DNA from: SAR202 cluster bacterium
GTDB lineage: Bacteria > Chloroflexota > Dehalococcoidia > Lucifugimonadales > VXLM01
Length of the DNA: 64,000 nt
Assembly: GCA_022448725.1 (NCBI GenBank)
Contig: JAKUTR010000002.1
Coordinates: 60,535-124,534, forward strand
Direction: 5' to 3'
Position numbers and translations under genes: made by a program. Below the pieces are notes generated by a model, which was given only the letters and a program-made list of their open reading frames with translations, was not told the origin of the DNA and did not search any database. Shown here piece after piece: positions 22,652-55,804 of this stretch (positions within the stretch are counted from its first letter, which is position 1; every line of letters begins with the position of its first letter).

Positions 22652-22780
22652 TTAAATTTGCCTTGGCAACATGTTTGAAAAAGTAACCGCGCAGATGGTT
22701 GCGATCCCCTAATGACCACTAACCCCCGGGAATGTGACCGTCCGTAAACGAAATATCCCATCTTCCACCTTGAGGTGTGG

Positions 22781-22870
22781 TGGCGGAGAGTGTGGGATTC
22801 GAACCCACGGTCCCCTTGCGAGGACACACGATTTCCAGTCGTGCCCAATCGGCCGCTCTGGCAACTCTCC
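22781..22870 (-). tRNA. tRNA-Ser (anticodon GGA), CCA encoded
   Basis: The minus strand reads GGAGAGTTGCCAGAGCGGCCGATTGGGCACGACTGGAAATCGTG...GGGTTCGAATCCCACACTCTCCGCCA. It has a 7-bp acceptor stem, G73 discriminator, anticodon loop CTGGAAA, long variable arm and GTTCGAATC T-loop. Confidence 0.9.
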
Positions 22871-22878
22871 GCTATTCG

Positions 22879-22906
22879 GAAGAATCGCATCGCGATGCGA
22901 TTCTTC
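22879..22906. repeat. 28-bp perfect palindrome in the spacer between the two tRNA-Ser genes
   Basis: GAAGAATCGCATCGCGATGCGATTCTTC is its own reverse complement. Confidence 0.9.
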
Positions 22907-22911
22907 GTCTA

Positions 22912-23001
22912 TGGCGGAGAGAGTGGGATTCGAACCCACGATGAGGTTGCCCCCATACCGGTTTTCGAGACCGGCGCCTTAAACCGCTCGGCCATCTCTC
23001 C
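22912..23001 (-). tRNA. tRNA-Ser (anticodon CGA), CCA encoded
   Basis: The minus strand reads GGAGAGATGGCCGAGCGGTTTAAGGCGCCGGTCTCGAAAACCGG...GGGTTCGAATCCCACTCTCTCCGCCA. It has anticodon loop CTCGAAA, a long variable arm and G73. Confidence 0.9.
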
Positions 23002-23017
23002 GCATTTTCGGTCCCGA

Positions 23018-23026
23018 ATTATACCA
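23018..23026 (-). promoter_or_regulatory. Candidate extended -10 promoter element for the tRNA-Ser pair
   Basis: The minus strand reads TGGTATAAT (TGn + TATAAT) 16 nt upstream of the tRNA-Ser(CGA) 5' end. There is no good -35. Confidence 0.35.
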
Positions 23027-23223
23027 TGCAAGTGGTCTTCAACCGCCATTGACCAGTCTACCACGCGGCCCCTATACTGCCCCATTCAGGGAACGATCAA
23101 AAAAGAGGCGATGAATATCACCATAGTGCTCTGACTTACCAAGCTCGTGCTTGTGGGAGGGGGTAAATCAAAGTGTTTGTCCCACCGGGCTAAACAGAGC
23201 CAACCATCTTCCTGGAGACTGAA

Positions 23224-24693
23224 ATGGAACGACCCCAGCGTACAATTTATTTTAATGATGCCAGGCATTTTTTCCTGTTCGTATTCGAGCCACCAATGAC
23301 CATAGAAGACGCATGGCGACCTGTCGACGAGGTTGCAGGAACCGGAGTCAATACGCTTGTTTATGGCATTGCAAGGGCAGACGGGCTGTTCTTTCCGACG
23401 AAGACCGGTAAATTATTTTGCAGCCATCTCGACGATATAGAAAACTCAATCTACTGGAAGGTTCGGGAAAACATTCTTTCTTTACAGGAACGTGGTCTTG
23501 ATTTACTCCAGGTCCTCGCAGACCGTGCACATGAGAAACGTATGGAGTTCTTTACAAGTTTCCGCATGGGCACATATGAGGGAGTTGGCAGTCCTTCATC
23601 TGACCCGAACGTAGGAGGCAGAGGCCTCGCCGATCCAGATGCACGTGAGAAACAATACCGGGTGTTCGAAGAAATCGCGACCTACAACATCGAGGGCATT
23701 GAACTCGACTTTGGTGGTAGCCCTGGGGGTATGCCACCTGTGCTCGTGGAGGATGACATATCCACACATAGTTCAGTGTTGACCGATCACGTCCGCCGCA
23801 TTTCTGAAATGGTTCGTCTGCAAGGTAAGCAAGTTGGGCTACGAATCCCTTGCGTAGAGAAAGTATGTGATTCCCAAGGATTTGAGATTCGAACTTGGTT
23901 ACAAGAAGGGCTAATCGATTACGTTGTGCCTATGATGTATGCGAATCTCCGGATTGATACTCAGATGCCGATTGGGTGGATTGTGGAAGCATCCAACGAT
24001 GCTGATGTACCCGTCTACGGTATGCTTCAGCCCTTTTTCGAAGACGGTTATCCCAACCACGGTTATTACGAACACTTCACTCCTGAATTAATGCGAGCCG
24101 CGGCGTCCAATTTCCTGACAAAAGGAGTAGACGGTCTTTATACATGGTTCCTCGACTGGCCACTAGGCTCTGCGGAGCGCGCTATGCTCACGGAGATCGC
24201 TGATCCTAGCTTGATGATCGAAGCCGATAAACAATATCGCTTGCCGCGTCGCGAACAGCGGTCCGCTGAGTTCGGTTACGGCGCGACGCTCCCAATCGAT
24301 ATCCCCAAGGCAGATACAAAGGATCGGCGGAAAATCCCAATTCAAATCTCAGATGACCCTGTTGGTAATTCGAATCGAATCCAGAAAATAACTCTTCGAA
24401 TACGTATTCGCAATACTGTAAGCGCTGACAGGTACTCCATTCTACTTAATGGTCAGTCGCTGAGCGAAGAACCAACACGTAGGACCTCAGGTGCTTTCGT
24501 CCGGATCCCTGTCTCTCCACATCGGATCGAACACTACAGCTCACAATGGCTAGAAATCGATCTGAACTCCGTACGGCCTACACAAGGATCTAATGTAATC
24601 GAGATATCGCTGGATAACAGGCCTCCGAAACTAAGCGGTGGTGTCACCATAGACGACCTAGAAATCAATATCGAGTACGACCAGTTTGGGTAA
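23224..24693 (+). CDS. Uncharacterised protein, paralog 1 of a 3-member family (TIM-barrel glycosidase-like N-domain + C-terminal beta-sandwich-like domain)
   Basis: 489 aa. It shares blocks with the ORFs at 41893..43434 and 53753..55333: FNDARHF, PVDEVAGTGVNTLVYG, LQERGLDLL..RAHEKRMEFFTSFRM, IEGIELDF, IRTWLQEGLIDYVVP and GVDGLYTWFLDWPLG. I recognised no named family. Confidence 0.6.
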   Translation: MERPQRTIYFNDARHFFLFVFEPPMTIEDAWRPVDEVAGTGVNTLVYGIARADGLFFPTKTGKLFCSHLDDIENSIYWKVRENILSLQERGLDLLQVLADRAHEKRMEFFTSFRMGTYEGVGSPSSDPNVGGRGLADPDAREKQYRVFEEIATYNIEGIELDFGGSPGGMPPVLVEDDISTHSSVLTDHVRRISEMVRLQGKQVGLRIPCVEKVCDSQGFEIRTWLQEGLIDYVVPMMYANLRIDTQMPIGWIVEASNDADVPVYGMLQPFFEDGYPNHGYYEHFTPELMRAAASNFLTKGVDGLYTWFLDWPLGSAERAMLTEIADPSLMIEADKQYRLPRREQRSAEFGYGATLPIDIPKADTKDRRKIPIQISDDPVGNSNRIQKITLRIRIRNTVSADRYSILLNGQSLSEEPTRRTSGAFVRIPVSPHRIEHYSSQWLEIDLNSVRPTQGSNVIEISLDNRPPKLSGGVTIDDLEINIEYDQFG

Positions 24694-26014: not shown

Positions 26015-27184
26015 TTAGAGCTTTACAAGGTCATCTTTTACTCGTTTTGCCATCTGGTCCATGTAGGCATCACGTCCCATTTGGGGTTTTTTGTACTCCA
26101 TACGTCCCTGATGCGGGATCATCCGAAGACCGCGATCTTCAAGCGGGAACTGGACTGCCGTATGACCTCTACGATGCGACTCACGGATGCCAATTGCCAT
26201 CTCCAATACTTTACGTCCATTGTCTCCACTTCCGGGTGGGTCAAGTCCTTGCTCCAAGTAGTCGACAAAAACTTTAACGGAGGCTACCTGCCTGTCACCT
26301 GGCCACTGCCAACCATCAGATTCATAAATTATGTCCCTTTTGCCTGGGGTTGTACCTTCTCGACCTCTAATTGAACTTTCAGGGAATACGCCCGTAACCT
26401 CTTGCAGCGTCTCCCATGATGAAACCCCAGTTGCGGGAGATTTGTACATACGAATGACATCGTTACTGTTCCGGAGCACCCCGTGTGTTCCGTTTACCAC
26501 AAATCCGCGCCCTCTCGCATCGTCATCACGGCTCATAAACGCTTCGATCCCGTTAACGAACCGAAAATAACCAGCGCCACCCTGGTCATGGTCTTTCCAT
26601 GCATCATCTGTGGTCCAACCGATGCACCATGCGATCTCCGCCCAATTAGCGAACATGCGAATGATGCTGAACCGCTGGATAAACCCACCCGATAGTTCGG
26701 TCCCACTACCATCATTGTATTGGATACTTAGTACGTCCCCTATCTCGCCAGCGTCAACCATCTCTTTCGCTTTCTGGTAGGCAGGCAGATTCAAATCAAG
26801 GTCACCCGCGCCAACCTTGACTCCATTTGCTTTACAGACGTTCACTGCACGGTCAGCCTCTTCGAGGGTTGCAGCAAACGGCTTCTCACAAAGAATACCT
26901 TTAACTCCAGATTCGGCACAGCCAATCACAACGCCTGGATTCGGTCGAACCGGCAGAATTGGCGCAGCGATATCAATGTCTTCCTTTGCGAGCATCTCCT
27001 TGTAATCAGTGTACCCCCGAACACCGAAGCGTTTACAGAAGATTTCAAGATTCTCCTCATCTGTATCAGCAGCAGCAACAATATGGGTTCGAGGATCAAG
27101 GCGATAGGCGCCGGCATGCTGCGCCCCTTTTCGCCCTATTCCTATCATCCCAACCTTGTATTTCGCTTCTTTACCGTCGGTCAT
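26015..27184 (-). CDS. Gfo/Idh/MocA family oxidoreductase
   Basis: Has an N-terminal Rossmann motif YKVGMIGIGRKGAQHAGAY, and EKP in ILCEKPFA. Confidence 0.8.
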   Translation of the reverse strand: MTDGKEAKYKVGMIGIGRKGAQHAGAYRLDPRTHIVAAADTDEENLEIFCKRFGVRGYTDYKEMLAKEDIDIAAPILPVRPNPGVVIGCAESGVKGILCEKPFAATLEEADRAVNVCKANGVKVGAGDLDLNLPAYQKAKEMVDAGEIGDVLSIQYNDGSGTELSGGFIQRFSIIRMFANWAEIAWCIGWTTDDAWKDHDQGGAGYFRFVNGIEAFMSRDDDARGRGFVVNGTHGVLRNSNDVIRMYKSPATGVSSWETLQEVTGVFPESSIRGREGTTPGKRDIIYESDGWQWPGDRQVASVKVFVDYLEQGLDPPGSGDNGRKVLEMAIGIRESHRRGHTAVQFPLEDRGLRMIPHQGRMEYKKPQMGRDAYMDQMAKRVKDDLVKL

Positions 27185-36494: not shown

Positions 36495-36803
36495 GATAGC
36501 AACTGTCTCGATTAATTTGCAGAATACACGTTGACAGTTGACACCAACTGGTCTCGTTCAAAGCAGATCAGCCAGCTACTGGCCAATTAAGAGAACACCA
36601 TCCGCAAGTGGGAATACCAAGTTGTGGCGGAGTTTCTTTACATGAAGTCCATGCACGTTGCCACCACTACCCGACTCCCAAACTATCTGCGTAGTAGACC
36701 TCCATACATCGCCAAGTTAGAACTAGTGTTCATTCTATGGTTGACCTCTGAAGCCGTCAAGAAAGCCTTGTGTGACTTCCCCACTAAGATAAAATGCAAA
36801 ACA

Positions 36804-37664
36804 ATGACGGTCATCGACACGCACATCCACATTCATGAACCAGACGTGCCCAATCATCGACTAGTACGTCGCTTAATGCCTGACGTAATAAAAGAGATTA
36901 TTAGGCCAGAAGGCGTCGACGGTGTCATCGTTGTCGAAGCAAGACAGGATATCTCAGAAAACGACTGGGTCCTCGAGCTCTCTGAAACCGAGCCCCTAAT
37001 TGCCGGGTACGTCGGCACGCTGGATGTATACTCGGAGAACTTCTCTCTAGATTTAGCTCACTACGCCACGAACCCTGTGTTTTCAGGCATTCGTATACAC
37101 ACGCTGTCACATAGTGGCCACGCTCGTGAAAACATTTTCCTCGGCAATATGGGGCATCTCCAAACTGCTCAACGTTCCTTGGATCTACATCTCGATTACT
37201 GGACCCTTCCTCTCGTCGATCACATCGTCCACGTGGCACCCGAACTCCCTCTTGTTGCTAACCACATGGGACAAGTACCGCTTGCGACGAGGTCAATCAA
37301 TTCTGAATGGATCAATAACATACAGCGGTTCGCTCAACACCCACGTGCCTTCATGAAAGTATCAGCACTACTTCAGATGGTGTACAGGCAACCTTCACCA
37401 TGGTCAAGATCGTTTACAGAAAAGCGAGCTATTCTCCCTCCACATGATCCTGAATACTATCGAGCAGCAATCGATGTGGTTTGGAATGCCTTCGGAGAGG
37501 ACCGTCTACTATACGCTAGCAATTGGCCCCAGATTGAACACGTAGGAGACTACTCGGACGAAATTGCAATCACGAAAACCTACTTTGAGCGTATGGGCAG
37601 CGACATTGCAGATAAGTTCTATTTTAGCAACGCGAAGTCCGTATATCACATGGCAACGCGTTAG
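36804..37664 (+). CDS. Amidohydrolase-2 family metal-dependent hydrolase
   Basis: MTVIDTHIHIHEP marks the N-terminal metal site. I chose the start at the internal ATG 36804, because the family begins at the (I/V)D.H.H motif. The track ORF begins at 36624. Confidence 0.7.
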   Translation: MTVIDTHIHIHEPDVPNHRLVRRLMPDVIKEIIRPEGVDGVIVVEARQDISENDWVLELSETEPLIAGYVGTLDVYSENFSLDLAHYATNPVFSGIRIHTLSHSGHARENIFLGNMGHLQTAQRSLDLHLDYWTLPLVDHIVHVAPELPLVANHMGQVPLATRSINSEWINNIQRFAQHPRAFMKVSALLQMVYRQPSPWSRSFTEKRAILPPHDPEYYRAAIDVVWNAFGEDRLLYASNWPQIEHVGDYSDEIAITKTYFERMGSDIADKFYFSNAKSVYHMATR

Positions 37665-38455
37665 ACGCTTTGCACCTCAAATCCCCAGTCAACCATCGGC
37701 TGTTGTAGGCGCCGCAAAACTTGGTCGTCACTTTCTAAGTTCTGCTTTACGGGGCGAAACGAGTACTTACTTTTTTCATACATTTGCCTAACATGCGCAT
37801 GCTGTTCATCTGTCTTTGGAAGTTGCACGTAGTTGATGGCATGTTGGTGACGGCCAGGGTGACCTCCCCAAGCTCCATGATACGTATCCTCCTTGAACAC
37901 AAGGACATCACCGGGAGTCGATTCAATAGCATACGACGGCACATCTCGAGGATAAACACCCCATACCTTGGCGTCTGGATCCTCAGCTCTATCGCTAATG
38001 CGACTAAGACGTTCGGAGAAATCTCCTTTATGAGAACCGGGGATCACACATAGTGCTCCTGTCTCACGTACCAATGGTTCGAGATAGAAACTAACCTTGA
38101 TATGTGAAAGGATCTCGGCACTTCCAAAACCACCATGCCACGCTGTATCGCCAACGTGAAGGTTGCCCTCGGTTAACTCCATAAAGTAGTTGTCTTTGCC
38201 TAATAGCCCATCTGCTATCGCAAGCATACGACTATCAGTGATAAGGCTGTGAAGATAGGGCCGACGCTCAAAGAAAGGCTGAACCGCCTGTCTTATTGGA
38301 GGGCCAACCTCGTTGCCATCTCGGTCAGCACTCATTATCTCGTTTGATTCCCGTAGCATCGTTCCCATTTCATTCGGACTGAATAATCCTCGAAACGTTA
38401 GGAACCCGAATGTCTCAAAAAAGTCCGTCTGATCGTTCGTTAATTCCATTCTCAC
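37661..38455 (-). CDS. Phytanoyl-CoA dioxygenase (PhyH) family Fe(II)/2-oxoglutarate enzyme with a non-canonical HxG first motif
   Basis: Family blocks are FFETFGFLTFRGLFS, GALCVIPGSHK and GDVLVFKEDTYHGAWG. The usual WHxD reads TAWHGGFG (His107 at 38135..38137, Gly109 at 38129..38131). I verified this by retranslating the DNA. Confidence 0.75.
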   Translation of the reverse strand: MRMELTNDQTDFFETFGFLTFRGLFSPNEMGTMLRESNEIMSADRDGNEVGPPIRQAVQPFFERRPYLHSLITDSRMLAIADGLLGKDNYFMELTEGNLHVGDTAWHGGFGSAEILSHIKVSFYLEPLVRETGALCVIPGSHKGDFSERLSRISDRAEDPDAKVWGVYPRDVPSYAIESTPGDVLVFKEDTYHGAWGGHPGRHQHAINYVQLPKTDEQHAHVRQMYEKSKYSFRPVKQNLESDDQVLRRLQQPMVDWGFEVQSV

Positions 38456-41892: not shown

Positions 41893-43434
41893 TTGGTAGA
41901 ACCTAGAGTCCATCCCCGTTTGATCTACTATAGTGACGCACATCATTTCCATGCCAAGCGACTGGACCCACCTGTTAGTCAACATCGGCTCCAGTGGCCA
42001 ATACACGAATTACTTGGAACAGGTGTTGAACTCCTAGTATTCGGCCTAGGTTTTGGTGACGTCTATTTCCATCAAACCAAGTATGGACGAGTCGTCGGTG
42101 ACGAGCAGGAAGTATGGCCTGAGTTCATCAACTGGCGGATCATGCGGATGGTTAAGGATGCTGCGGAAATGGGTACAGACCAAGTGCGGGAAGTGATCAC
42201 CCGGGGCCGTGAGACAGGTCTCCCCGTCTTCCCTAGTTTAAAGCTACAGGATCCAGCTGAGCCTGGTGACCAACGCTGCGGATGGCTTAAGTGGCACCGA
42301 GGGCAAGAAGTGGCTCACAAGGTTTCTAACTCTCGTTTCCCTTCGCACAAAACTGAGTGGTGCCTAGACTACACTAACGAGTTGGTACGGGAAGAAAAAC
42401 TTGCCCTGATCCGAGAGCTTCTCGAAGACTACAGCACTGACGGCATAGAACTTGATTTCATGTTTTTTCCCCTCTACTTCCGCGAGTCCGAAACAGAAGC
42501 AAATATCGACACGATGAGCAGATTTGTTGCAGACGTTAAGTCCCTTGCTAATGAAATTGGCCATACCCAAGATCGACCAATCCAGGTGGTTGCTCGAGTA
42601 GCACACCGGCGCGAGGAGAATCTTCGTATGGGGCTCGACGTTGAATCCTGGATCGCTAACGGTAGCGTCGATATGATCATCGGCCAAATACCAAATATGC
42701 TACTTGATACTGGCGTAACGGACGGGAAATGGATGGCCGATTCGGCAAATCAAGTAGGTATAGCTTCCTATCTGAGGCCAAATCGGCGGCTTGATGACCC
42801 TCGGGCAAGTATCGCCACAGCGGAAATGTTTAGAGCGTTCGGGCAGACACTCCATTGGCAAGGTTTCACAGGTATGTACCTCGGTTACCTACCATGGCCC
42901 TTCGCTCACGAGGAGTATCAACTGCTCCGGGAGATGGCTTATCCGGAGTCATTTCAAAGACGTAACAAACGTTACATACTCCCACCAACAGAAGCTCTGC
43001 AGCCGTATCAGATGCCTGATAATCACATGATCCCATTAACCCTTAAAGAAGGTGAACGTGAATCTCTACCCATCATCGTAGCTGATCAATTTTCCTCTGC
43101 TCGGGCAGATGGGGAACTGCGTAGTCCGGTACTAACCTTGAGGTTCCAGTCGTTCTGTGTTGAAGACGATGTTCAACTAGATTTCAACGGCACTAACCTC
43201 CCGGTCGACCGGGAAAATATTTACGAGCCTCAGCGTGGCACCTACTGGCTTAGGTATATCCTCGATCCCAACGTTATTGTTCAGGGTGAAAATATTTTGA
43301 ACATCGAGGTCGCCCGTATGGAACCAACCGCCGGGTTTGCTCGTTTGTTAACCGGAGTTGAGATCAATATCCGGTACACAGAATTCGAACGCCCAGAGAG
43401 TCTAAATCCGGCAACCATTCCTCCACCATCCTAG
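41893..43434 (+). CDS. Uncharacterised protein, paralog 2 of the 3-member family
   Basis: 513 aa. TTG start 6 nt after AAGGAGG. It shares YYSDAHHF, GTGVELLVFG, DGIELDFMFFPLYF, GLDVESWI and GMYLGYLPWPF with the ORFs at 23224 and 53753. Confidence 0.6.
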   Translation: MVEPRVHPRLIYYSDAHHFHAKRLDPPVSQHRLQWPIHELLGTGVELLVFGLGFGDVYFHQTKYGRVVGDEQEVWPEFINWRIMRMVKDAAEMGTDQVREVITRGRETGLPVFPSLKLQDPAEPGDQRCGWLKWHRGQEVAHKVSNSRFPSHKTEWCLDYTNELVREEKLALIRELLEDYSTDGIELDFMFFPLYFRESETEANIDTMSRFVADVKSLANEIGHTQDRPIQVVARVAHRREENLRMGLDVESWIANGSVDMIIGQIPNMLLDTGVTDGKWMADSANQVGIASYLRPNRRLDDPRASIATAEMFRAFGQTLHWQGFTGMYLGYLPWPFAHEEYQLLREMAYPESFQRRNKRYILPPTEALQPYQMPDNHMIPLTLKEGERESLPIIVADQFSSARADGELRSPVLTLRFQSFCVEDDVQLDFNGTNLPVDRENIYEPQRGTYWLRYILDPNVIVQGENILNIEVARMEPTAGFARLLTGVEINIRYTEFERPESLNPATIPPPS

Positions 43435-43575: not shown

Positions 43576-43887
43576 CTACGAGCTCTTACACAATTTGCGG
43601 AGCATGTCGAAGGGGTAAATGCCCGTGAAATGACCATCACTCCATAGGAACTGGACCGCATACTTACCAACCATTAAAAAATCCTCAGGACGGATATCAG
43701 AAGGGACAGTCGCCGGGTTGAGCAGTGGGCGCTGGGTCCACTCCTCAACACACTCGGCGCAAGCACAGTTTACGCGAAGGTGCTTCCCTCTATAGTTGCA
43801 TATGTCGCCATCGGTCCATTCGATAACCACATCGCCTTCTTCCGTTATCTGTAAGTCGACAATACCAACTTTAGTTTCCATTTTCAC
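43576..43887 (-). CDS. DUF971 (gamma-butyrobetaine-hydroxylase N-terminal-like) zinc-ribbon protein
   Basis: Reads LRVNCACAECVEEWT....LWSDGHFTGIYPFDMLRKLC, typical of DUF971. Confidence 0.7.
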   Translation of the reverse strand: MKMETKVGIVDLQITEEGDVVIEWTDGDICNYRGKHLRVNCACAECVEEWTQRPLLNPATVPSDIRPEDFLMVGKYAVQFLWSDGHFTGIYPFDMLRKLCKSS

Positions 43888-43909
43888 AGTTTACACCTAG
43901 TTGGGTGCA

Positions 43910-46900
43910 TCAACTGTCTTGGGATTTAGACACACGGAAAATTCTGACATCTTTATTTTCATAAATTTGCTGGAGAGTATCGCGCATGCCATCTTTGAAT
44001 TTCGCCATTCCAGACTGGTCGTAGTACAAGCGCTCTAACTGTCCAACGTAAATATATTCCACATCGTGCTCTTGGAGAATTGCTAGTGCCTCCTCAATAC
44101 TGGTCGTCTCGTAGATTCGCTTGACAGCTTCAATTCTTTTATTTACTTGTTGACGGTAATTCCAACGCTGCTGCTCTTGATGCCAACCCCACCCAACGAT
44201 ATTCGGCAACCCAGTGTAAATCGAAACTCGTCCTCCCCAACGGTAATTTGGCGTGTTAGCTTCCAGCATCACAGGAGAGCCCTCAATATTGTTCTGAATC
44301 CAACGGATCGCCTCATAATCACTAGTTAGGTCAATATCCCCATTGGCATCTGTATGTGAAGTGATATTATTCATGTACGCCATACCATCTAGGGTGAGTG
44401 GTATATCGGTATCGAACCGAACTCGAAGACGAGCCTGAGTTCCAAGTATCGGGTATATGGACGCCCCGATGATCAGTAAGGCAGTGCTCACCAACCACAA
44501 CTGCTTCCATCGGGGCAGCTTGAGGATCGGCTCACTTCGACTATGTACGAGCCTCCAGAGGAAATAGGCTGAAGCTAGGGCCAGTGTCACCCAAATCTGG
44601 AGATAGATTTTGAAGACACTATTCATTCGGTCAATGTCTCCCTCGAGTCGGTAGAGGTCCAAACCAATCGCCAACAAAAACGCTATCAAAACCAAGGCAA
44701 TGGCAAAAGCTACATGTGGGGAATCTGGTTTCGATGAAAAGATTCTTTTGTAAGATACGACCACACCAACCACCACAAACACAATTAGAACCGGGATCGT
44801 ACTCCCTAATTTGTCGACTACTGCAAGCGCTATCAAAAAACCAACTGTGATAACGCCTATACAAGCCAAGCCTAGTCGTATGATAAGAATCTGACGCCTC
44901 TCGCTATAGTCGACCCCAGTTGCACCAGCAAATCGGAAATTCCATCGAACTAGCCTACGACCTACCGATAACCAAATAGACTTGCCCCACTCCCTGCATT
45001 CGTTAAGGAAAAAGGACCCAACGACAAACATGAAAAGTCCGTTGATAGTCAAGAACTGCAGTAACACTGTCTGATTTGTGGTGGGTTCAAGGCTAGAAAA
45101 GAAAGTTTCATAGTTAGCGTTGTAGGGCAAAAATACCATGAGACCTACCAAAAGCACGATCGCGGACTTTACGCCAGCCTCAACTATTACTAATAGGTTT
45201 AGGCCGCCGTTCCGAAGCAGGCTGCCCAGCAAAATAGCAACTCCAGCAACAATCAAATATGTCGGGTAGTCCCACGCGTTGATCATACGCATTGCTCCGA
45301 CCACTACTCCAAGTGTGACAACACGGCTGACATCTCCGACACTCCACCCCTGCGTGAGCTGCTTCGATCCAAGCACTATCCCGAGGCCAAGTCCAATCGC
45401 TATTAGTGTGAACGGAATCACCATCAGATGTGCATGTAAATCCGCAAACAGAAAAGTAAAGAATGGGAACTCAGTAATCTCATTACCAGGTGGGTCTGGG
45501 GGCATCATTCGGCTGCTACGCCAAAAATCAAACGTCCCAAATGGTAGGTTTCGGAATAGTACATCTGTGGCATTCTCAACCAGTTGGACAGCACCGTGCA
45601 GGTTCCCTATCACAGCGACAAACAGTGCTCCTGTTAGGCCGGCTAAGACGGGTGACCACGCAAAGTTGGACGCAATACCTTGCGCCACCATAGACAGTCG
45701 TTGTCGGCTGCTCTCGGCGAGGTTGTAAACGATGCTAAAGGAACCGCTAATCGTTAGGGCGAAGAACATCGGAATCGCGAGATTGAATGCAACAGTACTC
45801 TCAATCCCTGTTAGCCGAATGAAACTCGAAACGATAAATTGGCCCCCATAGTAGTAGTTTATAGACCCAGCAGCGAACCATGGATCATATGGAGGCATAT
45901 AAGTGGACTTAAGGACGGCGTTAAGGTAAGCCAGATCCATCGGCTTTTCTCCACCTTGCCATGGATGCCAGAGGTCTGGGTTAGCCATGCGGATAAGCAC
46001 AAATCCAAGGAACGCTGCGACAAAGACTGCCTCAGAAACAGCAATGATCCGCCACTGCTTTTTGATACAGGTAGTAATCAGTTCCCATTTCGTAAGTAGC
46101 GTGAGAATGGACACCGAACCGACCACGAGGATACCTATAACCACCGCACCAAAAGAAAATGGTACCCATTTCACACTCGCCAGTAGCCAAGTGACCACGC
46201 ACACTAGAAGAATGCCCAAGCCCTTTGAGAAAAGATAACCTCGATCAGGTAAGGGCTGGAACAGTAGTGTAGCCAGTGGTAACACCGCTAACTGCATTAC
46301 AATCATGGCTAATAACCAAGCAACGACGGGAAACCTACTCGCAAGCCCATCTGGATTTATGATCTCTGACCAGGTGCCTCCAGCACGCTGTGCACGCAAC
46401 ATTTCACTGCTCAACATCAGGGAGTTGGAAGAGTCAACACTGCTCTTGGATTCAATTGCAACAGCAGAGTCGACGTCGCCAGCCAAGGCTAAGATATTGA
46501 CCTTAATCTGATCTGGAGTTAGCTTCCCTACGTTCTTGAAAATTAGTCCCTTCGGGTGATCGTAAACTGAGAAACTCTCATCAGCAAAGCCTAAATCGAA
46601 TGTGATCCTGTCGCCCGCAAGGTGATTAAATCCAGTTGGTGTTGGTAACCCTGGTCGACGGTAGGTGTTGTCTGTCAGACTGATTCCAAAGAGAGTCGGA
46701 TAAGCAGTCTCCACATTCTCCAACTGGTACCCTATATCCCCAGAAAACAGACTCCGGTAGTAGGCGGATGTAATCGGATACCGTTCCGGCAGTCTCGTGA
46801 TGGTGCCATAAAGACGATTACTGAAAAAAACCGCGAAGTCAGCCTCAGCTAAGTTTGTCGCCATATCATTGAGCTTAAGGGCCCCGTCCGGATTGTAAGA

Positions 46901-48460
46901 TTCCAGCGTCCTAATCTGATATTTACCGAGGTTGGGGATACCCTCCTCCCAGTGCTCAGTCAATAGAACAGACCCTGAGTCGACGTTATCGTTAATCCAC
47001 TCAGACATACGTACTGCTGTATGGGGCTCCTGATAGATAGACGTATAAGAGATGCCGTACACAATTGTCGCGAGAACCACGACCGCAATAATTACATTCG
47101 GAAGGTGCGCCAAGTATGCCTTCTTCATTAAAAAACGATGTCTAAGATCTATCAGCATTCTTATGCCGAAGATAATCAGAATGGGAGTTACGGGCATGAG
47201 GTATCTCATAAACTTCACATCGAAAGCTCCCGTTATGAGTAAATAAGGGACCACCCAAGACAATAGAAGAAGGTCGCATCTGGAATCACGCGACCGTACA
47301 AGTAACGTTGCTGACAATGCTACTAGGGCGATGATCGAGGCAATCCCGATCGCGAGAAAACTACTCGAATACAATAGGATCGCTAGTGGAATGAACCAGC
47401 CACATACGAGGTAAACCACGCCCAAGCGTAGAGACATTCCTCGCAGGGACGAATAAACAAGTCCCGCCCAAGCCACAACGCCTAGTGGCCATCCTAGACC
47501 AAATGTAGCCAACTGGCGGATTTGGTATAGATACGGAACAGTGTCAATGTACTGACGTGTGTAGGGGTAATCACGTATCCGCCTGACCATCTCAGATTGC
47601 TCAATTACATCCCCCCAAAAAGTATAGAAGTCCAAGAATGCGTACGGTTGCACTAAAATCAGTACCGCAATGGAGGCCCCAGTAGCGACAAGGAGTCCAC
47701 CTATTGCAGTCACTACTCTGTTTCGCAAACCCCGGATACCTCTTGCAGTGTCCAGTACCGGTAATACGTACAAGAAATGGGCCATTACTAATGCAAAGCA
47801 GATTGGTAACTGACTTACCTTGGTCGCTAGACCTAAGCCAACAAGACTTCCAGCGATCAGAGAATTTGCCAGTCCTCCACGGCTTGCCACACGCCACATG
47901 AAAAACAATGCAGCGATCGTCGTAAAGGCAAGAATCGTGTCAGTAGCGAAAAAATGACTCAACTGAATGTGTATAACCGCGAACGCCACTAGGACAGCGG
48001 CTAATACACCTTCCCGCCACCCATACATCCGGCTGGCTAGAAGATAAACGAATACCACTGTCCCTACATCGAATAGTGCAGAAACAGCGCGACCCAGTAT
48101 GCGTAGGTCATGGTCACCCGGCACCACCGTTTGAACTAGCTTCAGTAGGTACAGCGGGAAGCTACCATAGGGGAACCAACCAGGGTTCCAGGGACTCGCA
48201 TCTCGATCAAGGAGGACTCCAAGTTCACCAGCATCGGGAAAGGCAAGTTGGTTCACGTGATCCAGAATCGCTCGTTCATCTGGATGAGGTGTGTACCCGT
48301 AGCCTGCATCCCAATTAATACCGTTAATGCGTAACACGAGTGCCACAATGATTATCGCAGCTAGGGTGATCCATAAACCGGCGTTAGCAGAAGAGTATCT
48401 GCTCTGCGGGGTTGCGATCCCAGTGTTCTGGGACAGTGAGTGCGGTTGTTCCTTCTCCAT
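43910..48460 (-). CDS. Giant polytopic membrane protein: ArnT/PMT-like GT-C N-terminal region fused to a DUF2298 / 'Chlor_Arch_YYY' domain
   Basis: 1516 aa with dozens of TM helices. The YYYxG motif is present (SINYYYGGQF). The N-terminal ~450 aa resemble GT39/ArnT-type glycosyltransferases (periplasmic DERA-type loop HPDERAILD). Confidence 0.75.
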   Translation of the reverse strand: MEKEQPHSLSQNTGIATPQSRYSSANAGLWITLAAIIIVALVLRINGINWDAGYGYTPHPDERAILDHVNQLAFPDAGELGVLLDRDASPWNPGWFPYGSFPLYLLKLVQTVVPGDHDLRILGRAVSALFDVGTVVFVYLLASRMYGWREGVLAAVLVAFAVIHIQLSHFFATDTILAFTTIAALFFMWRVASRGGLANSLIAGSLVGLGLATKVSQLPICFALVMAHFLYVLPVLDTARGIRGLRNRVVTAIGGLLVATGASIAVLILVQPYAFLDFYTFWGDVIEQSEMVRRIRDYPYTRQYIDTVPYLYQIRQLATFGLGWPLGVVAWAGLVYSSLRGMSLRLGVVYLVCGWFIPLAILLYSSSFLAIGIASIIALVALSATLLVRSRDSRCDLLLLSWVVPYLLITGAFDVKFMRYLMPVTPILIIFGIRMLIDLRHRFLMKKAYLAHLPNVIIAVVVLATIVYGISYTSIYQEPHTAVRMSEWINDNVDSGSVLLTEHWEEGIPNLGKYQIRTLESYNPDGALKLNDMATNLAEADFAVFFSNRLYGTITRLPERYPITSAYYRSLFSGDIGYQLENVETAYPTLFGISLTDNTYRRPGLPTPTGFNHLAGDRITFDLGFADESFSVYDHPKGLIFKNVGKLTPDQIKVNILALAGDVDSAVAIESKSSVDSSNSLMLSSEMLRAQRAGGTWSEIINPDGLASRFPVVAWLLAMIVMQLAVLPLATLLFQPLPDRGYLFSKGLGILLVCVVTWLLASVKWVPFSFGAVVIGILVVGSVSILTLLTKWELITTCIKKQWRIIAVSEAVFVAAFLGFVLIRMANPDLWHPWQGGEKPMDLAYLNAVLKSTYMPPYDPWFAAGSINYYYGGQFIVSSFIRLTGIESTVAFNLAIPMFFALTISGSFSIVYNLAESSRQRLSMVAQGIASNFAWSPVLAGLTGALFVAVIGNLHGAVQLVENATDVLFRNLPFGTFDFWRSSRMMPPDPPGNEITEFPFFTFLFADLHAHLMVIPFTLIAIGLGLGIVLGSKQLTQGWSVGDVSRVVTLGVVVGAMRMINAWDYPTYLIVAGVAILLGSLLRNGGLNLLVIVEAGVKSAIVLLVGLMVFLPYNANYETFFSSLEPTTNQTVLLQFLTINGLFMFVVGSFFLNECREWGKSIWLSVGRRLVRWNFRFAGATGVDYSERRQILIIRLGLACIGVITVGFLIALAVVDKLGSTIPVLIVFVVVGVVVSYKRIFSSKPDSPHVAFAIALVLIAFLLAIGLDLYRLEGDIDRMNSVFKIYLQIWVTLALASAYFLWRLVHSRSEPILKLPRWKQLWLVSTALLIIGASIYPILGTQARLRVRFDTDIPLTLDGMAYMNNITSHTDANGDIDLTSDYEAIRWIQNNIEGSPVMLEANTPNYRWGGRVSIYTGLPNIVGWGWHQEQQRWNYRQQVNKRIEAVKRIYETTSIEEALAILQEHDVEYIYVGQLERLYYDQSGMAKFKDGMRDTLQQIYENKDVRIFRVSKSQDS

Positions 48461-48506: not shown

Positions 48507-50012
48507 CTAAACTACAACGGTACAAAACTGCTCATAGGCTTCACTCCACGCTGATGTATGCTGAGGTTCAAACTCAACTCGGTCAAATGAAGAGTAGCTA
48601 AGCTCTCGTGCTTCCTGAAGGGACGATACCTCGCCATGCGCAATAAGTTGAACTAGGATGTTACCTATTGCAGTCGCCTCGAATGGTCCTGCCACAACTG
48701 GTCGGTTGGTGGCATTAGCCGTAAACTGATTAAGTAACTCGTTCTTTGCTCCTCCACCGACTATATGAATCTTCTTACATTCACGTCCCACCGCATAATC
48801 AATGTCATCAAGCACAGTACGGTACCGCAACGCTAAACCTTCGAGGATGGTCCTTACGACTTGTCCTTCGGAGCTTGGTTGATTTTGGTTAGTCCTGTAA
48901 CAGTATTCCCGAATACGGGAAGGTACATCCCCTGGCTTTAGGAAAACCGTATCGTCAGGGTTGATCAGAGAAGAGAACGGTTCTGCCCTAATTGCCAGTT
49001 CGTTTAGGTTCTCATAGTCAAAACGCATCCCTCTTTCCGACCAGATGCGCTTCGCTTCCTGAAGCAACCATAAGCCGGACACGTTTTTAAGTGGCCGCAC
49101 AGTACCATACACACCCGTTTCGTTACCTAACCTCATCCTGAGTGCTTCTAAATTGATGATCGGCTCGGAGGTCTCAACACCAAGTACAGACCAAGTCCCC
49201 GAACTCAAAAATCCCCAGTCAGCAGTGTTAGCTGGTACAGCAGCTACCGCTGAAGCCGTGTCGTGAGTTCCGGTCAAGACGACACGTATATTTGAAGTGT
49301 CGTGGTCTTTAATTATTGATGACCTGAGGGCGCCAATTTGGTAGCCAGGCTCGTACAGATCCTGTAGCAGTTCCCCTGAAAGATCAAGCTTTTCCAAGAG
49401 AGCATAGGCCCAGGTGTGAAGACGAGTGTCATAAATCTGGCTGGTACTAGCAAGAGTCTTGTCTGTCAGCTTGCTACCTGTCAGCCAGAAGTTTATTAGA
49501 TCAGGTATGAACAATAAGCTATTGGCCTTACGGTAAATCTGGGGGGTTTGTTCTTTAGCGGCAATGAGTTGGAACAGTGTGTTCATCTCCATAAACTGCA
49601 CGCTAGCTTGGTTGTATAAGTATTCTGCTCCCAGTGAGTCCACAACGCGATCCATAATTCCCGTGGTGCGCATATCCCGGTAGTGATAGGGATGCTCAAT
49701 GAGTTCGTCATCTCCGTCCAATAGCGCGTAGTCGATCCCCCACGTATCGACACCTATGGAGACCAGTTGGTTTCCATACAACTGTAGTGCCTTGCCAATA
49801 CCTGTTTGTATTTCCCTAAATAGCCTGCGAATTGGCCATCTCAGGCTTCCCGCTTCTGAAACTGCTCCGTTTGGAAATCGGTGCACCTCTTGTACAGATA
49901 TTCGGTGGCCATCATAAGTTCCAACAATAACCTTCCCACTAGAAGCGCCAAGGTCAATTGCCAAATAAGCTTTGGTGCTAACCAAGGCGACACTCCTTGA
50001 AGACCAGACCAT
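48507..50012 (-). CDS. rhaB: Rhamnulokinase (FGGY carbohydrate kinase family)
   Basis: Collinear with E. coli RhaB blocks (from memory): AIDLGASSGKV, HRFPNG, GVDTWGIDYALLD, GTHDTASAVAAVP, FLSSGTWSVLG, LKNVSGLWLLQE and HIVGGGAKNELLNQ. Confidence 0.8.
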   Translation of the reverse strand: MVWSSRSVALVSTKAYLAIDLGASSGKVIVGTYDGHRISVQEVHRFPNGAVSEAGSLRWPIRRLFREIQTGIGKALQLYGNQLVSIGVDTWGIDYALLDGDDELIEHPYHYRDMRTTGIMDRVVDSLGAEYLYNQASVQFMEMNTLFQLIAAKEQTPQIYRKANSLLFIPDLINFWLTGSKLTDKTLASTSQIYDTRLHTWAYALLEKLDLSGELLQDLYEPGYQIGALRSSIIKDHDTSNIRVVLTGTHDTASAVAAVPANTADWGFLSSGTWSVLGVETSEPIINLEALRMRLGNETGVYGTVRPLKNVSGLWLLQEAKRIWSERGMRFDYENLNELAIRAEPFSSLINPDDTVFLKPGDVPSRIREYCYRTNQNQPSSEGQVVRTILEGLALRYRTVLDDIDYAVGRECKKIHIVGGGAKNELLNQFTANATNRPVVAGPFEATAIGNILVQLIAHGEVSSLQEARELSYSSFDRVEFEPQHTSAWSEAYEQFCTVVV

Positions 50013-50051
50013 TGGTACTTATCATCAATATAGCTCTTACTGGAGATCGAT

Positions 50052-50738
50052 ATGAACGAACGTAATAACAATACTGAAGCAGTCAAGTTTAGCTCAACTC
50101 AACTCTCAACCGAATCTCCCAGCCCGGAAGCCGTCGAACAACTTTGTTTGATCTGCAATGAACTCGACTCTATTGGCCTATTGGCTCCCTACGAGGCTCC
50201 GGCCCCCATCGGAAGTAACGGCAACCTAAGCTACCGAAAAGGTGACACCAGCAGGTTTATAGTCACAGCAACGCGGCTGGATACTAAGCGGGATCTGCAA
50301 CCAGATGCTTTTGTCGATGTTGATCGATACGAACTGTATGGTACTGAAGAAATGGATAGCACTGCGTATTTTCACGGCCAGCAGCGTCCATCGTCAGAAA
50401 GCATCTTACATTGGTACTTCTACCAACTTTACGCTGAGATAAATGCCATCATTCACGTCCATGAGAATACCGAGTTACTGTACTCAAAAGAGTCTCGGTC
50501 TGTATGGGAAGAATTAGGTATTATCGAAACCAATCGATACGGAGACGCGGGCACTGTAGATCTACCTCGCACCGTCGACGAGGTACTTACGAACCTCAAC
50601 GAATATGTAGTGCTTAAGGACCATTACCCAGAGTGGGACACTAAGCATACTGGAACGGTCGTGTTCGCTGAGAACCTTGATCGTGCGAGAGATCGGATCA
50701 TTCAAGTACATGAGGGGTTGTCCGAAGCGAACAGGTGA
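50052..50738 (+). CDS. Class II aldolase / adducin N-terminal domain family protein
   Basis: Has GSNGNLSYRKG..FIVTATRLD (compare the GNxSxR...ITxSG pattern) and the IIHVHE metal-binding His pair. It is divergent from rhaB across 39 bp. Confidence 0.6.
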   Translation: MNERNNNTEAVKFSSTQLSTESPSPEAVEQLCLICNELDSIGLLAPYEAPAPIGSNGNLSYRKGDTSRFIVTATRLDTKRDLQPDAFVDVDRYELYGTEEMDSTAYFHGQQRPSSESILHWYFYQLYAEINAIIHVHENTELLYSKESRSVWEELGIIETNRYGDAGTVDLPRTVDEVLTNLNEYVVLKDHYPEWDTKHTGTVVFAENLDRARDRIIQVHEGLSEANR

Positions 50739-50811: not shown

Positions 50812-51516
50812 TTATCCTCCAAGCATATTGGCCAACTCAACAAAATCGCCCACTTCAAAGTCGGGCTGGTAAGGTGATTCCTCTGTAGGTAGCCCGTATC
50901 GGTTCACATACACCCCGCGGTAGCCACAGGCGCGGGCTCCAACAATATCAAATGAGTGAGCTGCAACCATCATCACCTGACCCGGCTCCTTACTAAGAAG
51001 CTGCAGCGAGGTTCGATAGACCGACGGATGAGGTTTAAAAAAACCAGCTTCCTCAACCGATATAATCGCGTCAAAGTCGACTTTAATGTTGTTGGCTACC
51101 AGGTGTTCAAGGTAGGACTTCTCACCGTTGGAAAGCGCCACTAAATCAAACTTCTCCCGAAGCCGTACTAGGCCTTCGATTGCGTCTTTGTAAGGCCGAA
51201 GGTCCTTGTAGACATTCATAAAGTTGGCCACCTCGAGGTCCTCGAAGTCCACTTTGTTCGCCTTAAGGGTGTAAACCAAAGCCCGACGACACGTTTCAAG
51301 ATAGCCACTATGCCCTAGTAATAAGAGATTATCCTGATATTGTTCAATACGCTGCCTGGCACGCCATTGGGACCACAGTTCCTTACTAGAGACTGCCGCA
51401 GGATGAGAAGTGAGAAACTCATCAATCGGTGGAATAAGACTACCGGACAGATCGAGAACCGTTCCAAATATGTCAAACGCCAGTGTATCGACATATCTGA
51501 GCGGGTCACTAGCCAT
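50812..51516 (-). CDS. Haloacid dehalogenase type II-like HAD hydrolase
   Basis: Has LAFDIFGTVLDL (nucleophile Asp motif), LVALSNGE and HSFDIVGARACGYRGVYVNR. Confidence 0.75.
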   Translation of the reverse strand: MASDPLRYVDTLAFDIFGTVLDLSGSLIPPIDEFLTSHPAAVSSKELWSQWRARQRIEQYQDNLLLLGHSGYLETCRRALVYTLKANKVDFEDLEVANFMNVYKDLRPYKDAIEGLVRLREKFDLVALSNGEKSYLEHLVANNIKVDFDAIISVEEAGFFKPHPSVYRTSLQLLSKEPGQVMMVAAHSFDIVGARACGYRGVYVNRYGLPTEESPYQPDFEVGDFVELANMLGG

Positions 51517-51519
51517 CTA

Positions 51520-52659
51520 CTACACAGACCCAAGCAACTCCTCGCGAAGACGACTGATCACAATCGGCACTTCTTCGTCGAGAAGGTTGATCGGCTCAAC
51601 GCCAAGTTCGTCTAGGTCCCCCAACTGGTATAGATGTATCGCTGGATTCCCGTTGGCCATCCTATCCAAGATTACGTCCCTGCTAGGACCTTTCCAATCA
51701 CGCGTGAAGTAGATGCGTGCGGTAGGCACCAAATAGTTCCACTCATCGTGTTGGACAGAAATTTCCAGTCCCGGTATCTCGATCAGTGCATCAACAACTT
51801 GTTGTGACATCTCCTTGAATCGCTTATTCTCAACTTCCTCGTCCTCACTATCAAAGATTTGTAGAGCCTTAACCAACCCCATGATCTCCTCTTTTGCAAC
51901 CTTCATGCTACGACCAAGGAATTGGTTTGGCGCAGCGTTGGCTGCTGCAGCCTCAATGAGGTCAGCTCTCCCGATCAAAATCCCGGTTCCCTGAGGCCCT
52001 CTAATACCTTTACCTCCACTCAGAATTACTAGGTCCGCACCTTCCCGGATATATCTTTTCAGGTTGTCACGAGGCGGGAGTGTGGAGGCGGCATCGACAA
52101 TTACTGGAACCCCTCGAGCATGTGAAATCTCGCAAACCTCTGGTAAGGGTATCGCTCGACGTGAAACGAAGGCTGCGAAAAGGTAAGCGACAGCAGCAGT
52201 CTTTTCTGTAAATGCAGCTTCAAGCTGCCAGGGATAGCACCTTCTTCCATCACCAATCTCTACAAACTTTGCACCCGCAGCGCGATATAACTGGTCGTAA
52301 GCAAAGCGGTGACTTTTCTGAATAATCACTTCATTCTTCATACCAGTTGTATCCGGTAGGCTGACCATCTTTGCCGGGTCGTTACCGGCGATAACGGCGG
52401 CGGCTTGCATCACTAAGCCTCCACCAGAACCGCTTGTGACCAGCGCTGCTTCGGCACCACAAATCTCGGCAATTATCTCTCCAGCTTTCTTGTTTAAATC
52501 ATTGATATCAACCATCACAGTCGAGGTCTTGCGCATCACCTCCGCTGCTTCTGGTCTAAGTCTAGATCCACCCCACATCGTCGTGGTTCCGGAAGCGTTG
52601 ATGATCCGGTTAACTCCGATGGAACGGTAGAGTTCTTCTCCAGTCATTGACAAGTTCAT
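51520..52659 (-). CDS. SelA-like / DgaE-like PLP-dependent enzyme
   Basis: Reads INASGTTTMWGGSRL...ALVTSGSGGGLVMQAAA...LVILSGGKGIRGPQGTGIL (PLP-Lys region). This resembles the seryl-tRNA(Sec) selenium transferase-related family. Confidence 0.65.
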   Translation of the reverse strand: MNLSMTGEELYRSIGVNRIINASGTTTMWGGSRLRPEAAEVMRKTSTVMVDINDLNKKAGEIIAEICGAEAALVTSGSGGGLVMQAAAVIAGNDPAKMVSLPDTTGMKNEVIIQKSHRFAYDQLYRAAGAKFVEIGDGRRCYPWQLEAAFTEKTAAVAYLFAAFVSRRAIPLPEVCEISHARGVPVIVDAASTLPPRDNLKRYIREGADLVILSGGKGIRGPQGTGILIGRADLIEAAAANAAPNQFLGRSMKVAKEEIMGLVKALQIFDSEDEEVENKRFKEMSQQVVDALIEIPGLEISVQHDEWNYLVPTARIYFTRDWKGPSRDVILDRMANGNPAIHLYQLGDLDELGVEPINLLDEEVPIVISRLREELLGSV

Positions 52660-52806
52660 ACGTGATCCTCATGGGCAAATTGGCCAGCGGCATTATAGCA
52701 TCGGCATAGTGAAAACCCGGACCTACGCATAAAATTACCTGCTAATCGTGCGTAAAGCGCATCAAGGTTGCCGCAACGCATTGTGACCCTCTCCACCAAG
52801 CATCCA

Positions 52807-53715: not shown

Positions 53716-53752
53716 GTGATCTTGGGATTATGGGACAGAGTAAGCAATCATA

Positions 53753-55333: not shown

Positions 55334-55340
55334 GTGTACT

Positions 55341-55802
55341 TCACTCAAGAGAGGCGATAACCTCACCATCGACCACCTGGTCACCAGCGGAAACATTTAC
55401 TGAAGCGACAATACCAGACCAATCCGCTCGAAGCACCTGCTGCATCTTCATCGCCTCCAGAACGCATATATCATCACCAGTGACCACTTGGTCACCAACT
55501 GACACAGCAACCGAAATTATTACTCCTGGCATGGGGGACTTAAACGAGCGCGATGACTCGTCGGATATTTGAACATTATTACCTGAAGTTGATGTAGAAG
55601 GTGAGCGTGGCCTAGAGTCACTAATCTTAAGATCATCTTCAGCCTTGGCATGTACCGAAGAGCCACCGTCCTCGATACTGACCTCCACAGGTTCACCATC
55701 AACAAGAACCTGGATTGGGAAGTCAGTAATATCACTAACTTCGACTGTATACCAATTATCTCCAATCTGCACACGCAGTGTTGTAGGTTCTACTGGATCC
55801 AT
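55341..55802 (-). CDS. Free-standing biotin carboxyl carrier protein (biotinyl domain, GcdC/MmdC/1.3S-like)
   Basis: The C-terminal PMPGVIISVAVSVGDQVVTGDDICVLEAMKMQQVL carries the EAMKM biotinylation motif. A Ser/Pro-rich linker follows. The N-terminal TLRVQIGDNWYTVEV resembles the xVxVNGxxYxVxV segment of transcarboxylase 1.3S and OadA association regions. Confidence 0.85.
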   Translation of the reverse strand: MDPVEPTTLRVQIGDNWYTVEVSDITDFPIQVLVDGEPVEVSIEDGGSSVHAKAEDDLKISDSRPRSPSTSTSGNNVQISDESSRSFKSPMPGVIISVAVSVGDQVVTGDDICVLEAMKMQQVLRADWSGIVASVNVSAGDQVVDGEVIASLE

Positions 55803-55804
55803 CT

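Follow-up and report, generated by a model that had tools for sequence, protein, structure and literature searches.

Three divergent GH156-like proteins encoded on one SAR202 contig share the fold of a sialidase and lack most of its sialic-acid residues

The DNA analysed here, referred to as the window, is a stretch of 64,000 nucleotides from a SAR202 cluster bacterium (Chloroflexota; Dehalococcoidia), corresponding to positions 60,535 to 124,534 of contig JAKUTR010000002.1 (assembly GCA_022448725.1). It carries three genes, named W1, W2 and W3, whose products resemble the glycoside hydrolase family GH156. A check of the open reading frames (ORFs) gave the following extents, numbered within the window:

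23224..24693, plus strand: W1 (copy 1), 489 aa, GH156-like, 'NDARH' subfamily.
41893..43434, plus strand: W2 (copy 2), 513 aa, TTG start, GH156-like, 'SDAHHFH' subfamily.
53753..55333, minus strand: W3 (copy 3), 526 aa counted from the Met at 55333, GH156-like, sister to the W1-type proteins, with few close relatives.

The open frame of W3 extends to 55396. As its start, the Met at 55333 is preferred, because it is aligned with the N-termini of homologues and lies 8 nt after the upstream stop, as opposed to a 56-nt overlap. In BLASTP with compositional adjustment, the three proteins align end to end: W1 and W3 with 30% identity (E 6e-80), W2 and W3 with 27% (E 5e-54), and W1 and W2 with 24% (E 2e-32). 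An earlier note, made from the sequence alone, had described the three ORFs as homologous over their full length, strongly diverged, and closest between copies 1 and 3, and these values agree with it on each point. It had also named a compositional resemblance as a finding that would refute it; since all three adjusted alignments run end to end, the similarity is alignable. The motif blocks that it listed are all present, although only copies 1 and 3 show a good ERGLD...RAHEK...EFF.S.RM block. No fourth copy or fragment was found in the window, where a family hidden Markov model (HMM) run on all six-frame ORFs returned only W1-W3 at E<=10.

The AlphaFold2 models of W1 (predicted local distance difference test, pLDDT, 93.9; predicted template-modelling score, pTM, 0.92) and W2 (pLDDT 92.2; pTM 0.91) both consist of eight beta/alpha units, forming a (beta/alpha)8 barrel, and of an all-beta domain at the C-terminus. 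The latter had been suspected to be a beta-sandwich, which the two models and the hhalign alignment bear out. In W1, the domains are placed as follows:

23224..24258, plus strand: (beta/alpha)8 barrel, residues 1 to ~345, from the model and from hhalign to the EnvSia156 barrel.
24286..24690, plus strand: C-terminal beta-sandwich, residues ~355-489; all-beta over 358-485 in the model, and aligned by hhalign to the GH156 C-terminal domain until residue 484.

EnvSia156 (PDB 6RZD/6S00), the founder of CAZy family GH156, is an inverting exo-alpha-sialidase from a hot-spring metagenome. In Foldseek searches of the PDB, its entry 6s00 is the top match of W1 (E 2.3e-30, TM-score 0.77, 528 columns) and of W2 (E 2.5e-35, TM-scores 0.78/0.80), and EnvSia156 (6s00/6rzd) is the sole full-length match of either model, with TM-scores of 0.77-0.80 over 521-530 columns. 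The runners-up (Cwp19, GH66, GH13, GH29 and PgaB) reach E ~1e-13 or worse, with good superposition over only part of the structure, going by their TM-scores. The gap between GH156 and the next match thus amounts to 17-22 orders of magnitude in two independent models.

Profile searches point to the same relative. A profile of the three proteins, compared to all PDB sequences, matched EnvSia156 (6RZD) with E 4e-27 and the GHL10 protein Cwp19 with E 1e-11; for a 67-sequence family profile, these values were 1e-28 and 4e-14. The alignment by hhalign of the family to GH156 orthologues (EnvSia156, partly rebuilt from HMMER output, and orthologues collected from it) has a 99.9% probability and E 3.7e-35 over 438 columns, which include the N-terminal motif and the C-terminal sandwich. 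W3 alone matches 6rzd in phmmer with E 6e-14. A profile restricted to the N-terminal 71 positions yielded chance matches in the PDB and did not recover EnvSia156.

A narrow GH156 HMM, built here from close EnvSia156 orthologues only and standing in for the CAZy/dbCAN model, gave W2 98.7 bits, W3 95.2 and W1 31.6, the matches of W2 and W3 spanning 78% of the model. With such scores, automated CAZy annotation would be expected to label these proteins GH156, and would probably miscall them as sialidases. With the Pfam model GHL10 (PF02638; gathering threshold 27.9), W3 scored 32.0 bits, W1 20.7 and W2 11.5, so that W3 alone passes; a precomputed PF02638 match is present on most W1-type homologues and on almost no W2-type homologue. 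An NCBIfam scan of W1-W3 gave no meaningful match. The family had at first been left without a name; W1-W3 fall in the GHL10 superfamily, and their nearest solved relative is GH156.

In EnvSia156, Asp14 acts as the general base, His134 serves as acid, and Arg129, Arg202 and Asn346 form the triad that binds the carboxylate (PMC6811678). Aligned by hhalign, the corresponding residues are:

Asp14, general base: D12 in W1, D15 in W2, D11 in W3.
His17, conserved: H15 in W1, H18 in W2, H14 in W3.
Arg129, carboxylate triad: R114 in W1, K117 in W2, R124 in W3.
His134, general acid: E119 in W1 (a variable column), A122 in W2, Q129 in W3.
Glu197/Asp199, beta4 pair: E160/D162 in W1, E186/D188 in W2, E187/D189 in W3.
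Arg202, carboxylate triad: G165 in W1, F191 in W2, F192 in W3.
Arg246, buried: R207 in W1, R235 in W2, R236 in W3.
Trp264, core: W225 in W1, W253 in W2, W254 in W3.
Asn346, carboxylate triad: a gap in W1, W2 and W3.
Codons of the base Asp: 23257..23259 (plus strand) for Asp12 of W1, 41935-41937 (plus strand) for Asp15 of W2, 55301-55303 (minus strand) for Asp11 of W3.

The base lies in a stretch where hhalign pairs IYFN-DARHF of W1 with ISLNEDNSHYF of GH156. It never varies in the 67-sequence alignment of the family, and in the W2-type alignment its conservation is 90% or more. Conserved residues of W1 (D12, H15, R114, E160, D162, R207, W225 and D232) correspond to D14, H17, R129, E197, D199, R246, W264 and D271 of GH156, and the buried core of Glu-x-Asp (beta4), Arg (beta5) and Trp is kept in all three proteins. 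Some 24 positions show no variation at all across at least six phyla, among them the catalytic Asp and charged residues of the barrel core. This invariance of key residues between proteins of 25-50% identity argues for a working active site.

Of the five residues that define the sialidase, only two are retained, the general-base Asp and Arg129 (Lys in W2), and His134, Arg202 and Asn346 are lost. A GH156 sialidase call requires four or more out of these five, according to Mann, Shekarriz & Surette (bioRxiv 2022.06.28.497753), in which 19 of 51 CAZy GH156 entries are without the sialidase residues and 'may target neutral sugars'. W1-W3 are therefore GH156-type by fold and homology, yet fail the functional definition of a GH156 sialidase. 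The earlier note had reserved a confident match to a characterised enzyme family as the result that would overturn its picture; such a match now exists for fold and homology, and it does not extend to the substrate, since the sialic-acid residues are missing.

Each subfamily shows changes of its own around the active site. The position two residues past the base has become basic (Arg14 in W1 and W3, His17 in W2). W3-type proteins have a conserved R-x-x-H, in which the His stands two residues before the His134 position, and W1-type proteins have no His in the beta3 loop. In the W2 subfamily, a His-rich loop, D15-A-H17-H18-F-H20, directly follows beta1 (41935..41952) and is accompanied by His60 (42070..42072); in the W2-type alignment, H17, H18 and H60 never vary, and the conservation of D15 and H20 is 90% or more. 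This loop and His60 could form a metal site or provide a replacement acid.

It is unlikely that W1-W3 are nevertheless genuine GH156 exo-sialidases, or hydrolases of (non)ulosonic acids of the KDN (ketodeoxynonulonic acid) or Kdo (ketodeoxyoctonic acid) type, with clamp and acid re-wired. GH156 is the nearest relative by every method, the equivalents of Asp14 and Arg129 are kept, and the new basic residue beside the base and the W3-type His two residues off the His134 position are points in favour of this reading. GH156 is also among the CAZy genes of the CAZy-richest large-genome SAR202 strain, and in a sponge metatranscriptome the sialidase-annotated genes (GH33, GH156) are expressed highest in Dehalococcoidia metagenome-assembled genomes (MAGs). 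Against this stand the shortfall in defining residues and the replacement of Arg202 by Gly, Phe or Ala, together with the deletion of Asn346. Tandem partners of the family elsewhere (clusters 2 and 3) do keep the equivalents of His134 and Arg202, which indicates that the loss is specific and not an alignment artefact. In addition, no genes for sialic-acid catabolism (NanA/NanK/NanE type) were seen in the annotated parts of the window.

The family is large. Against 1.84 billion representatives at 50% identity, its profile matched 5965 proteins at E<=1e-3, 3229 at 1e-10 and 919 at 1e-30, and a set of 185,579 species genomes yielded 437 matches. The best genome matches are Dehalococcoidia MAGs with 66-69% identity, which agrees, as do the SAR202 names among relatives of W2, with a Dehalococcoidia/SAR202 lineage. 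Going by isolate names, many MAGs with matches seemingly come from sponges. Clustering of 124 sequences resulted in four groups: W1 and W3 ('NDARH'), W2 ('SDAHHFH / Lys114'), further tandem-partner clades from other phyla, and GH156 proper. Orthologues of W1 are 66-74% identical in Dehalococcoidia MAGs and 44-52% identical in Poribacteria, Latescibacterota, Acidobacteriota (Bryobacterales, Terriglobia, 'Versatilivorator'), Gemmatimonadota, Planctomycetota and Acidimicrobiia. The W2 subfamily comprises 285 database clusters at E<=1e-10, some of them named 'SAR202 cluster bacterium'; one relative, on a syntenic contig, is 96% identical and others are 57-73% identical. The nearest database relatives of W3 reach 45-47% only.

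Copies often lie close together, with two to four of them within 21 kb in 24 of 76 loci. In one Dehalococcoidia locus, 4 kb separate a W1-type gene from one of W2-type, and a 3.07-Mb contig bears at least one W1-type and two W2-type genes. Arrays of two to four family genes occur in Terriglobia, 'Versatilivorator', Latescibacterota and Gemmatimonadota (loci L020, L024, L034-L037, L044, L057, L060, L067, L073 and L075); there, the residue-deficient NDARH type is mixed with clades that keep His134 and Arg202, and heparinase II/III-like and xylose-isomerase-like genes often adjoin.

The three genes had been taken, tentatively, for a paralog expansion within the lineage. Copy 1 resembles its orthologues in other phyla (44-52%) more closely than it does copies 2 and 3 (24-30%), and W2 has a subfamily of its own. 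Judged from these comparisons of sequences, W1, W2 and W3 are old subfamilies co-resident in one genome and not a recent lineage-specific expansion. Recent horizontal acquisition was rejected as well, the GC content being flat at 45-52% across the window.

Strand beta1 begins at residue 7 in the W1 model and at residue 10 in that of W2, and none of the three proteins offers space for a signal peptide. The cytoplasmic location proposed from the ORFs is thereby upheld, but not the view that it would be odd. Exo-glycosidases that act on imported oligosaccharides are normally cytoplasmic, and orthologues elsewhere bear leaders of the twin-arginine translocation (Tat) type. Such Tat-like leaders (S/T-R-R-x-F-x-Q and an Ala/Gly-rich stretch) are present in 26/29 orthologues of Acidobacteriota (four acidobacterial labels), 4/4 of Planctomycetota (Fuerstiella counted) and 1/1 of Acidimicrobiia. 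They are absent from the single Brocadiaceae sequence (0/1) and from Dehalococcoidia (0/11), Poribacteria (0/14), Latescibacterota (0/11) and Gemmatimonadota (0/7). Tat leaders in diderm phyla fit a folded, secreted glycosidase.

The loss of the acid and of substrate-binding residues, and the heterogeneous, non-sugar genes around W1-W3 in the window, might also suggest catalytically dead proteins of glycosidase descent, with a binding or regulatory role. This is very improbable, considering the strictly invariant positions that include the catalytic Asp, the conservation of each of the three subfamilies over long distances, the Tat export of some orthologues, and the occurrence of others in operons with polysaccharide lyase-like genes.

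In the window, the following neighbours are relevant:

22781..22870 and 22912..23001, minus strand: tRNA-Ser genes with anticodons GGA and CGA, just upstream of W1.
26015..27184, minus strand: Gfo/Idh/MocA oxidoreductase (Pfam), a putative recurrent partner of W1-type genes.
36624..38455: Amidohydro_2 gene (lactonase-like, plus strand) and PhyH dioxygenase gene (minus strand), 3.4-5.3 kb upstream of W2 (Pfam); the association is weak.
51520..52659, minus strand: DgaE/SelA-like pyridoxal phosphate (PLP)-dependent ammonia-lyase, two genes downstream of W3 (TIGR01437, 217 bits, below the cut-off), a putative partner.

W1 is preceded by the two tRNA-Ser genes and followed by a convergent RumA-type methyltransferase gene and then the Gfo/Idh/MocA gene. 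A 119-aa ORF at 22775..23134 (plus strand) was rejected as a partner of W1, as it reads through the two tRNA-Ser genes. In a promoter and terminator scan around W1, sites were no more numerous than in shuffled sequences. W2 follows an ABC-F ATPase gene, with the PhyH, amidase and Amidohydro_2 genes upstream; the Amidohydro_2 gene has a weak NCBIfam match to L-fucono-1,5-lactonase. W3 belongs to a series of seven closely spaced genes on one strand (50812..57287, minus strand). In it, W3 stands after the genes for oxaloacetate-decarboxylase subunits (OadG-like, OadB and the biotinyl carrier) and before those for an agmatinase-family protein (above the NCBIfam cut-off), the DgaE-like PLP lyase and a HAD type II protein, an odd mix for one operon.

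Some further genes adjoin these regions. Directly downstream of W2, at 43576..48460 (minus strand), lie a gene for a 1516-aa DUF2298/PMT_2 membrane glycosyltransferase-like protein and a small GBBH-like_N (DUF971) gene, in an order that is kept on the contig (L088) bearing the 96%-identical W2. At 3 kb from W3, a rhamnulokinase-like FGGY kinase gene (464 bits; equivalog cut-off 528) and a class II aldolase gene are arranged divergently (48507..50738), which hints at deoxy-hexose metabolism nearby. LamB/YcsF (PxpA), CT_C_D and CT_A_B genes at 57321..59960 (plus strand) form the usual 5-oxoprolinase-type trio.

To examine the neighbourhood more widely, all ORFs of 79 genome loci were clustered; the counts are raw and per 76 loci. 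The most widespread neighbour is the subfamily of the Gfo/Idh/MocA gene of the window, present in 16 of the 76 loci and in six taxa. The window gene is 46-49% identical to the gene adjoining the W1 orthologue in seven Dehalococcoidia loci, and has full-length matches of 29-31% directly adjoining family members in Brocadiaceae, Bryobacterales and Latescibacterota, on the same strand and spaced from a 63-nt overlap to a 70-bp gap. In six Dehalococcoidia loci, DgaE-like homologues lie upstream of the W1 orthologue, at a distance of 8 nt in L006 and L009, and a SelA-like (DgaE-like) gene also adjoins a W2-type gene on a SAR202 contig. Heparinase II/III-like genes are found in ten Latescibacterota and Gemmatimonadota loci, 0-500 bp upstream in most. 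Xylose-isomerase-like TIM, MR_MLE dehydratase, HpcH aldolase, Amidohydro_2 (12/76), PhyH (11/76) and SDR genes occur in 9-12 loci each, and PhyH stands directly upstream of a tandem pair in L086/L087. The same partner genes surround the W2-type and W3-type loci. In locus L083 (9548..13486), the genes of two large DUF8034 proteins (644 and 663 aa) separate a W2-type gene from a second Gfo/Idh/MocA gene, the whole set sharing one strand; these proteins might belong to the same pathway as well. As a whole, the neighbour set supports a role in carbohydrate breakdown that would feed an oxidative sugar or sugar-acid pathway.

The Gfo/Idh/MocA association bears on two of the alternatives. Its fold includes GH179, whose sole characterised member is a sialidase, a further point for the sialidase reading. 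It also raises a non-classical activity, in which W1-W3 would act as eliminase, hydratase or transglycosylase together with an NAD (nicotinamide adenine dinucleotide)-dependent Gfo/Idh/MocA enzyme, for instance on an oxidised (keto) glycoside. Gfo/Idh/MocA genes at 25-70 bp on the same strand in four phyla would fit this, as would the adjoining xylose-isomerase-like TIM genes in Latescibacterota and Gemmatimonadota and the absence of the canonical acid. Compared to the PDB, with a glycosidase of GH109/GH179 type in mind, the window Gfo protein is covered over the Rossmann domain alone, by enzymes of many specificities, with weak N-terminal matches to the glycoside/glucuronide 3-dehydrogenases DgpA and 8tdi. 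Furthermore, the GHL10 protein Cwp19 is reported to be a lytic transglycosylase. We nevertheless find a non-classical activity rather unlikely: the base Asp and the Glu/Asp pair of beta4 match those of a proven hydrolase exactly, and 60 of the 76 loci are without a Gfo neighbour. To our knowledge, the known oxidative glycoside-cleavage pathways need no such barrel protein.

We consider it reasonably probable that W1-W3 are cytoplasmic two-domain exo-glycosidases, distant homologues of GH156, each subfamily cutting its own non-sialic sugar. A substrate other than sialic acid is probable because the residues for binding and cutting sialic acid are mostly lost. The proteins would still be glycoside hydrolases, probably exo-acting on imported oligosaccharides, with the conserved Asp as base, paired with a different, relocated acid in each subfamily. 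Candidates for this acid are Asp162 or Asp245 (W1-type), the His of R-x-x-H (W3-type) and the His-rich beta1 loop (W2-type). The substrate would differ per subfamily, with a deoxy-hexose, an amino sugar or a uronic/ulosonic acid as candidates. The released sugar could then enter an oxidative, non-phosphorylative route. Its suggested enzymes are the Gfo/Idh/MocA dehydrogenase, an amidohydrolase of lactonase type, either a dehydratase of the enolase superfamily or a DgaE-like ammonia-lyase, and an HpcH aldolase.

Several points weigh against this assignment. The proposed replacement acid is a guess, and the residue equivalences stem from profile alignment and not from a three-dimensional superposition of the models. 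With Arg129 kept and a new Arg or His two residues past the base, the substrate could also be an acidic sugar, ulosonic acids that resemble sialic acid included. In the window, W1-W3 are not within obvious sugar-utilisation operons, and the Gfo/Idh/MocA, PhyH and Amidohydro_2 genes may be merely abundant in these genomes.

GH156 has one characterised activity, that of a sialidase. Recent papers on SAR202 and on sponge microbiomes list GH156, and the sponge paper takes it as a sialidase and a sign of the use of sialic acid or host glycans. If subfamilies such as those of W1-W3 form part of these calls, that ecological inference is unsafe, and for proteins like W1-W3 the sialidase reading of GH156 in SAR202 and sponge Dehalococcoidia is doubtful. 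A bolder proposal can be made tentatively, as possible rather than probable: the NDARH (W1/W3) and SDAHHFH (W2) clades would have new specificities and an acid unlike that of GH156. Together with a Gfo/Idh/MocA partner of their own, they would serve a pathway that oxidises sugars and is widespread in SAR202/Dehalococcoidia, Poribacteria, Latescibacterota and Acidobacteriota, and many of the 'GH156 sialidase' assignments made in metagenomes of SAR202 and of sponge symbionts would be this activity under a wrong name. Large and devoid of the sialic-acid clamp, these subfamilies would be good targets for a new glycosidase specificity and a variant inverting mechanism, and the three differently equipped copies in one window offer a ready comparison set. 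The fold, the family and the existence of residue-deficient GH156 sequences are already known; not yet characterised are these subfamilies, their distribution, their putative linkage to Gfo/Idh/MocA genes and their substrates.

W1-W3 share with EnvSia156 a full-length build of two domains, the (beta/alpha)8 barrel and an 8-stranded C-terminal beta-sandwich. Also common to them are the N(E)D-x-x-H-(Y/F) motif after beta1 with the general-base Asp, D-x-x-A-G-T before beta2, S-x-R at beta3 (Arg129), G-x-E-L-D at beta4, the buried Arg246 and Trp264, and a D/E-x-D-M-P loop after beta6. The identity is only 15-19%, in line with the earlier impression that the family is without a characterised close relative. 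His134 (acid), Arg202 and Asn346 (clamp) are gone in W1-W3, and other residues take the place of Asn15, Ser16 and Cys53, by which EnvSia156 binds the glycerol side chain. In turn, the family has invariants of its own (Glu36 and Trp312-Pro313), W1-type proteins have a deletion of ~25 residues in the beta3-alpha3 loop, and the His-rich loop of W2 is without a counterpart in W1, W3 or GH156. A parallel to the missing sialidase residues is formed by the residue-deficient CAZy GH156 entries set aside by Mann et al., which, like W1-W3, are GH156-type without the Asp-His dyad and/or the Arg-Arg-Asn triad; in the accessible text of that preprint, they are left without characterisation and individual sequences are not named. 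Cwp19 of Clostridioides difficile (GHL10, PDB 5OQ2) shares the barrel superfamily, the beta3-beta4 region and W-x-x-x-G-L-x-D-Y-V-V-P. Its resemblance is much weaker (E 1e-11 to 4e-14, versus 1e-27 to 1e-28 for GH156; TM-score 0.49 on the query) and confined to the barrel part of W1, ~390 of 489 residues, and Cwp19 is reported to be a surface enzyme that degrades peptidoglycan.

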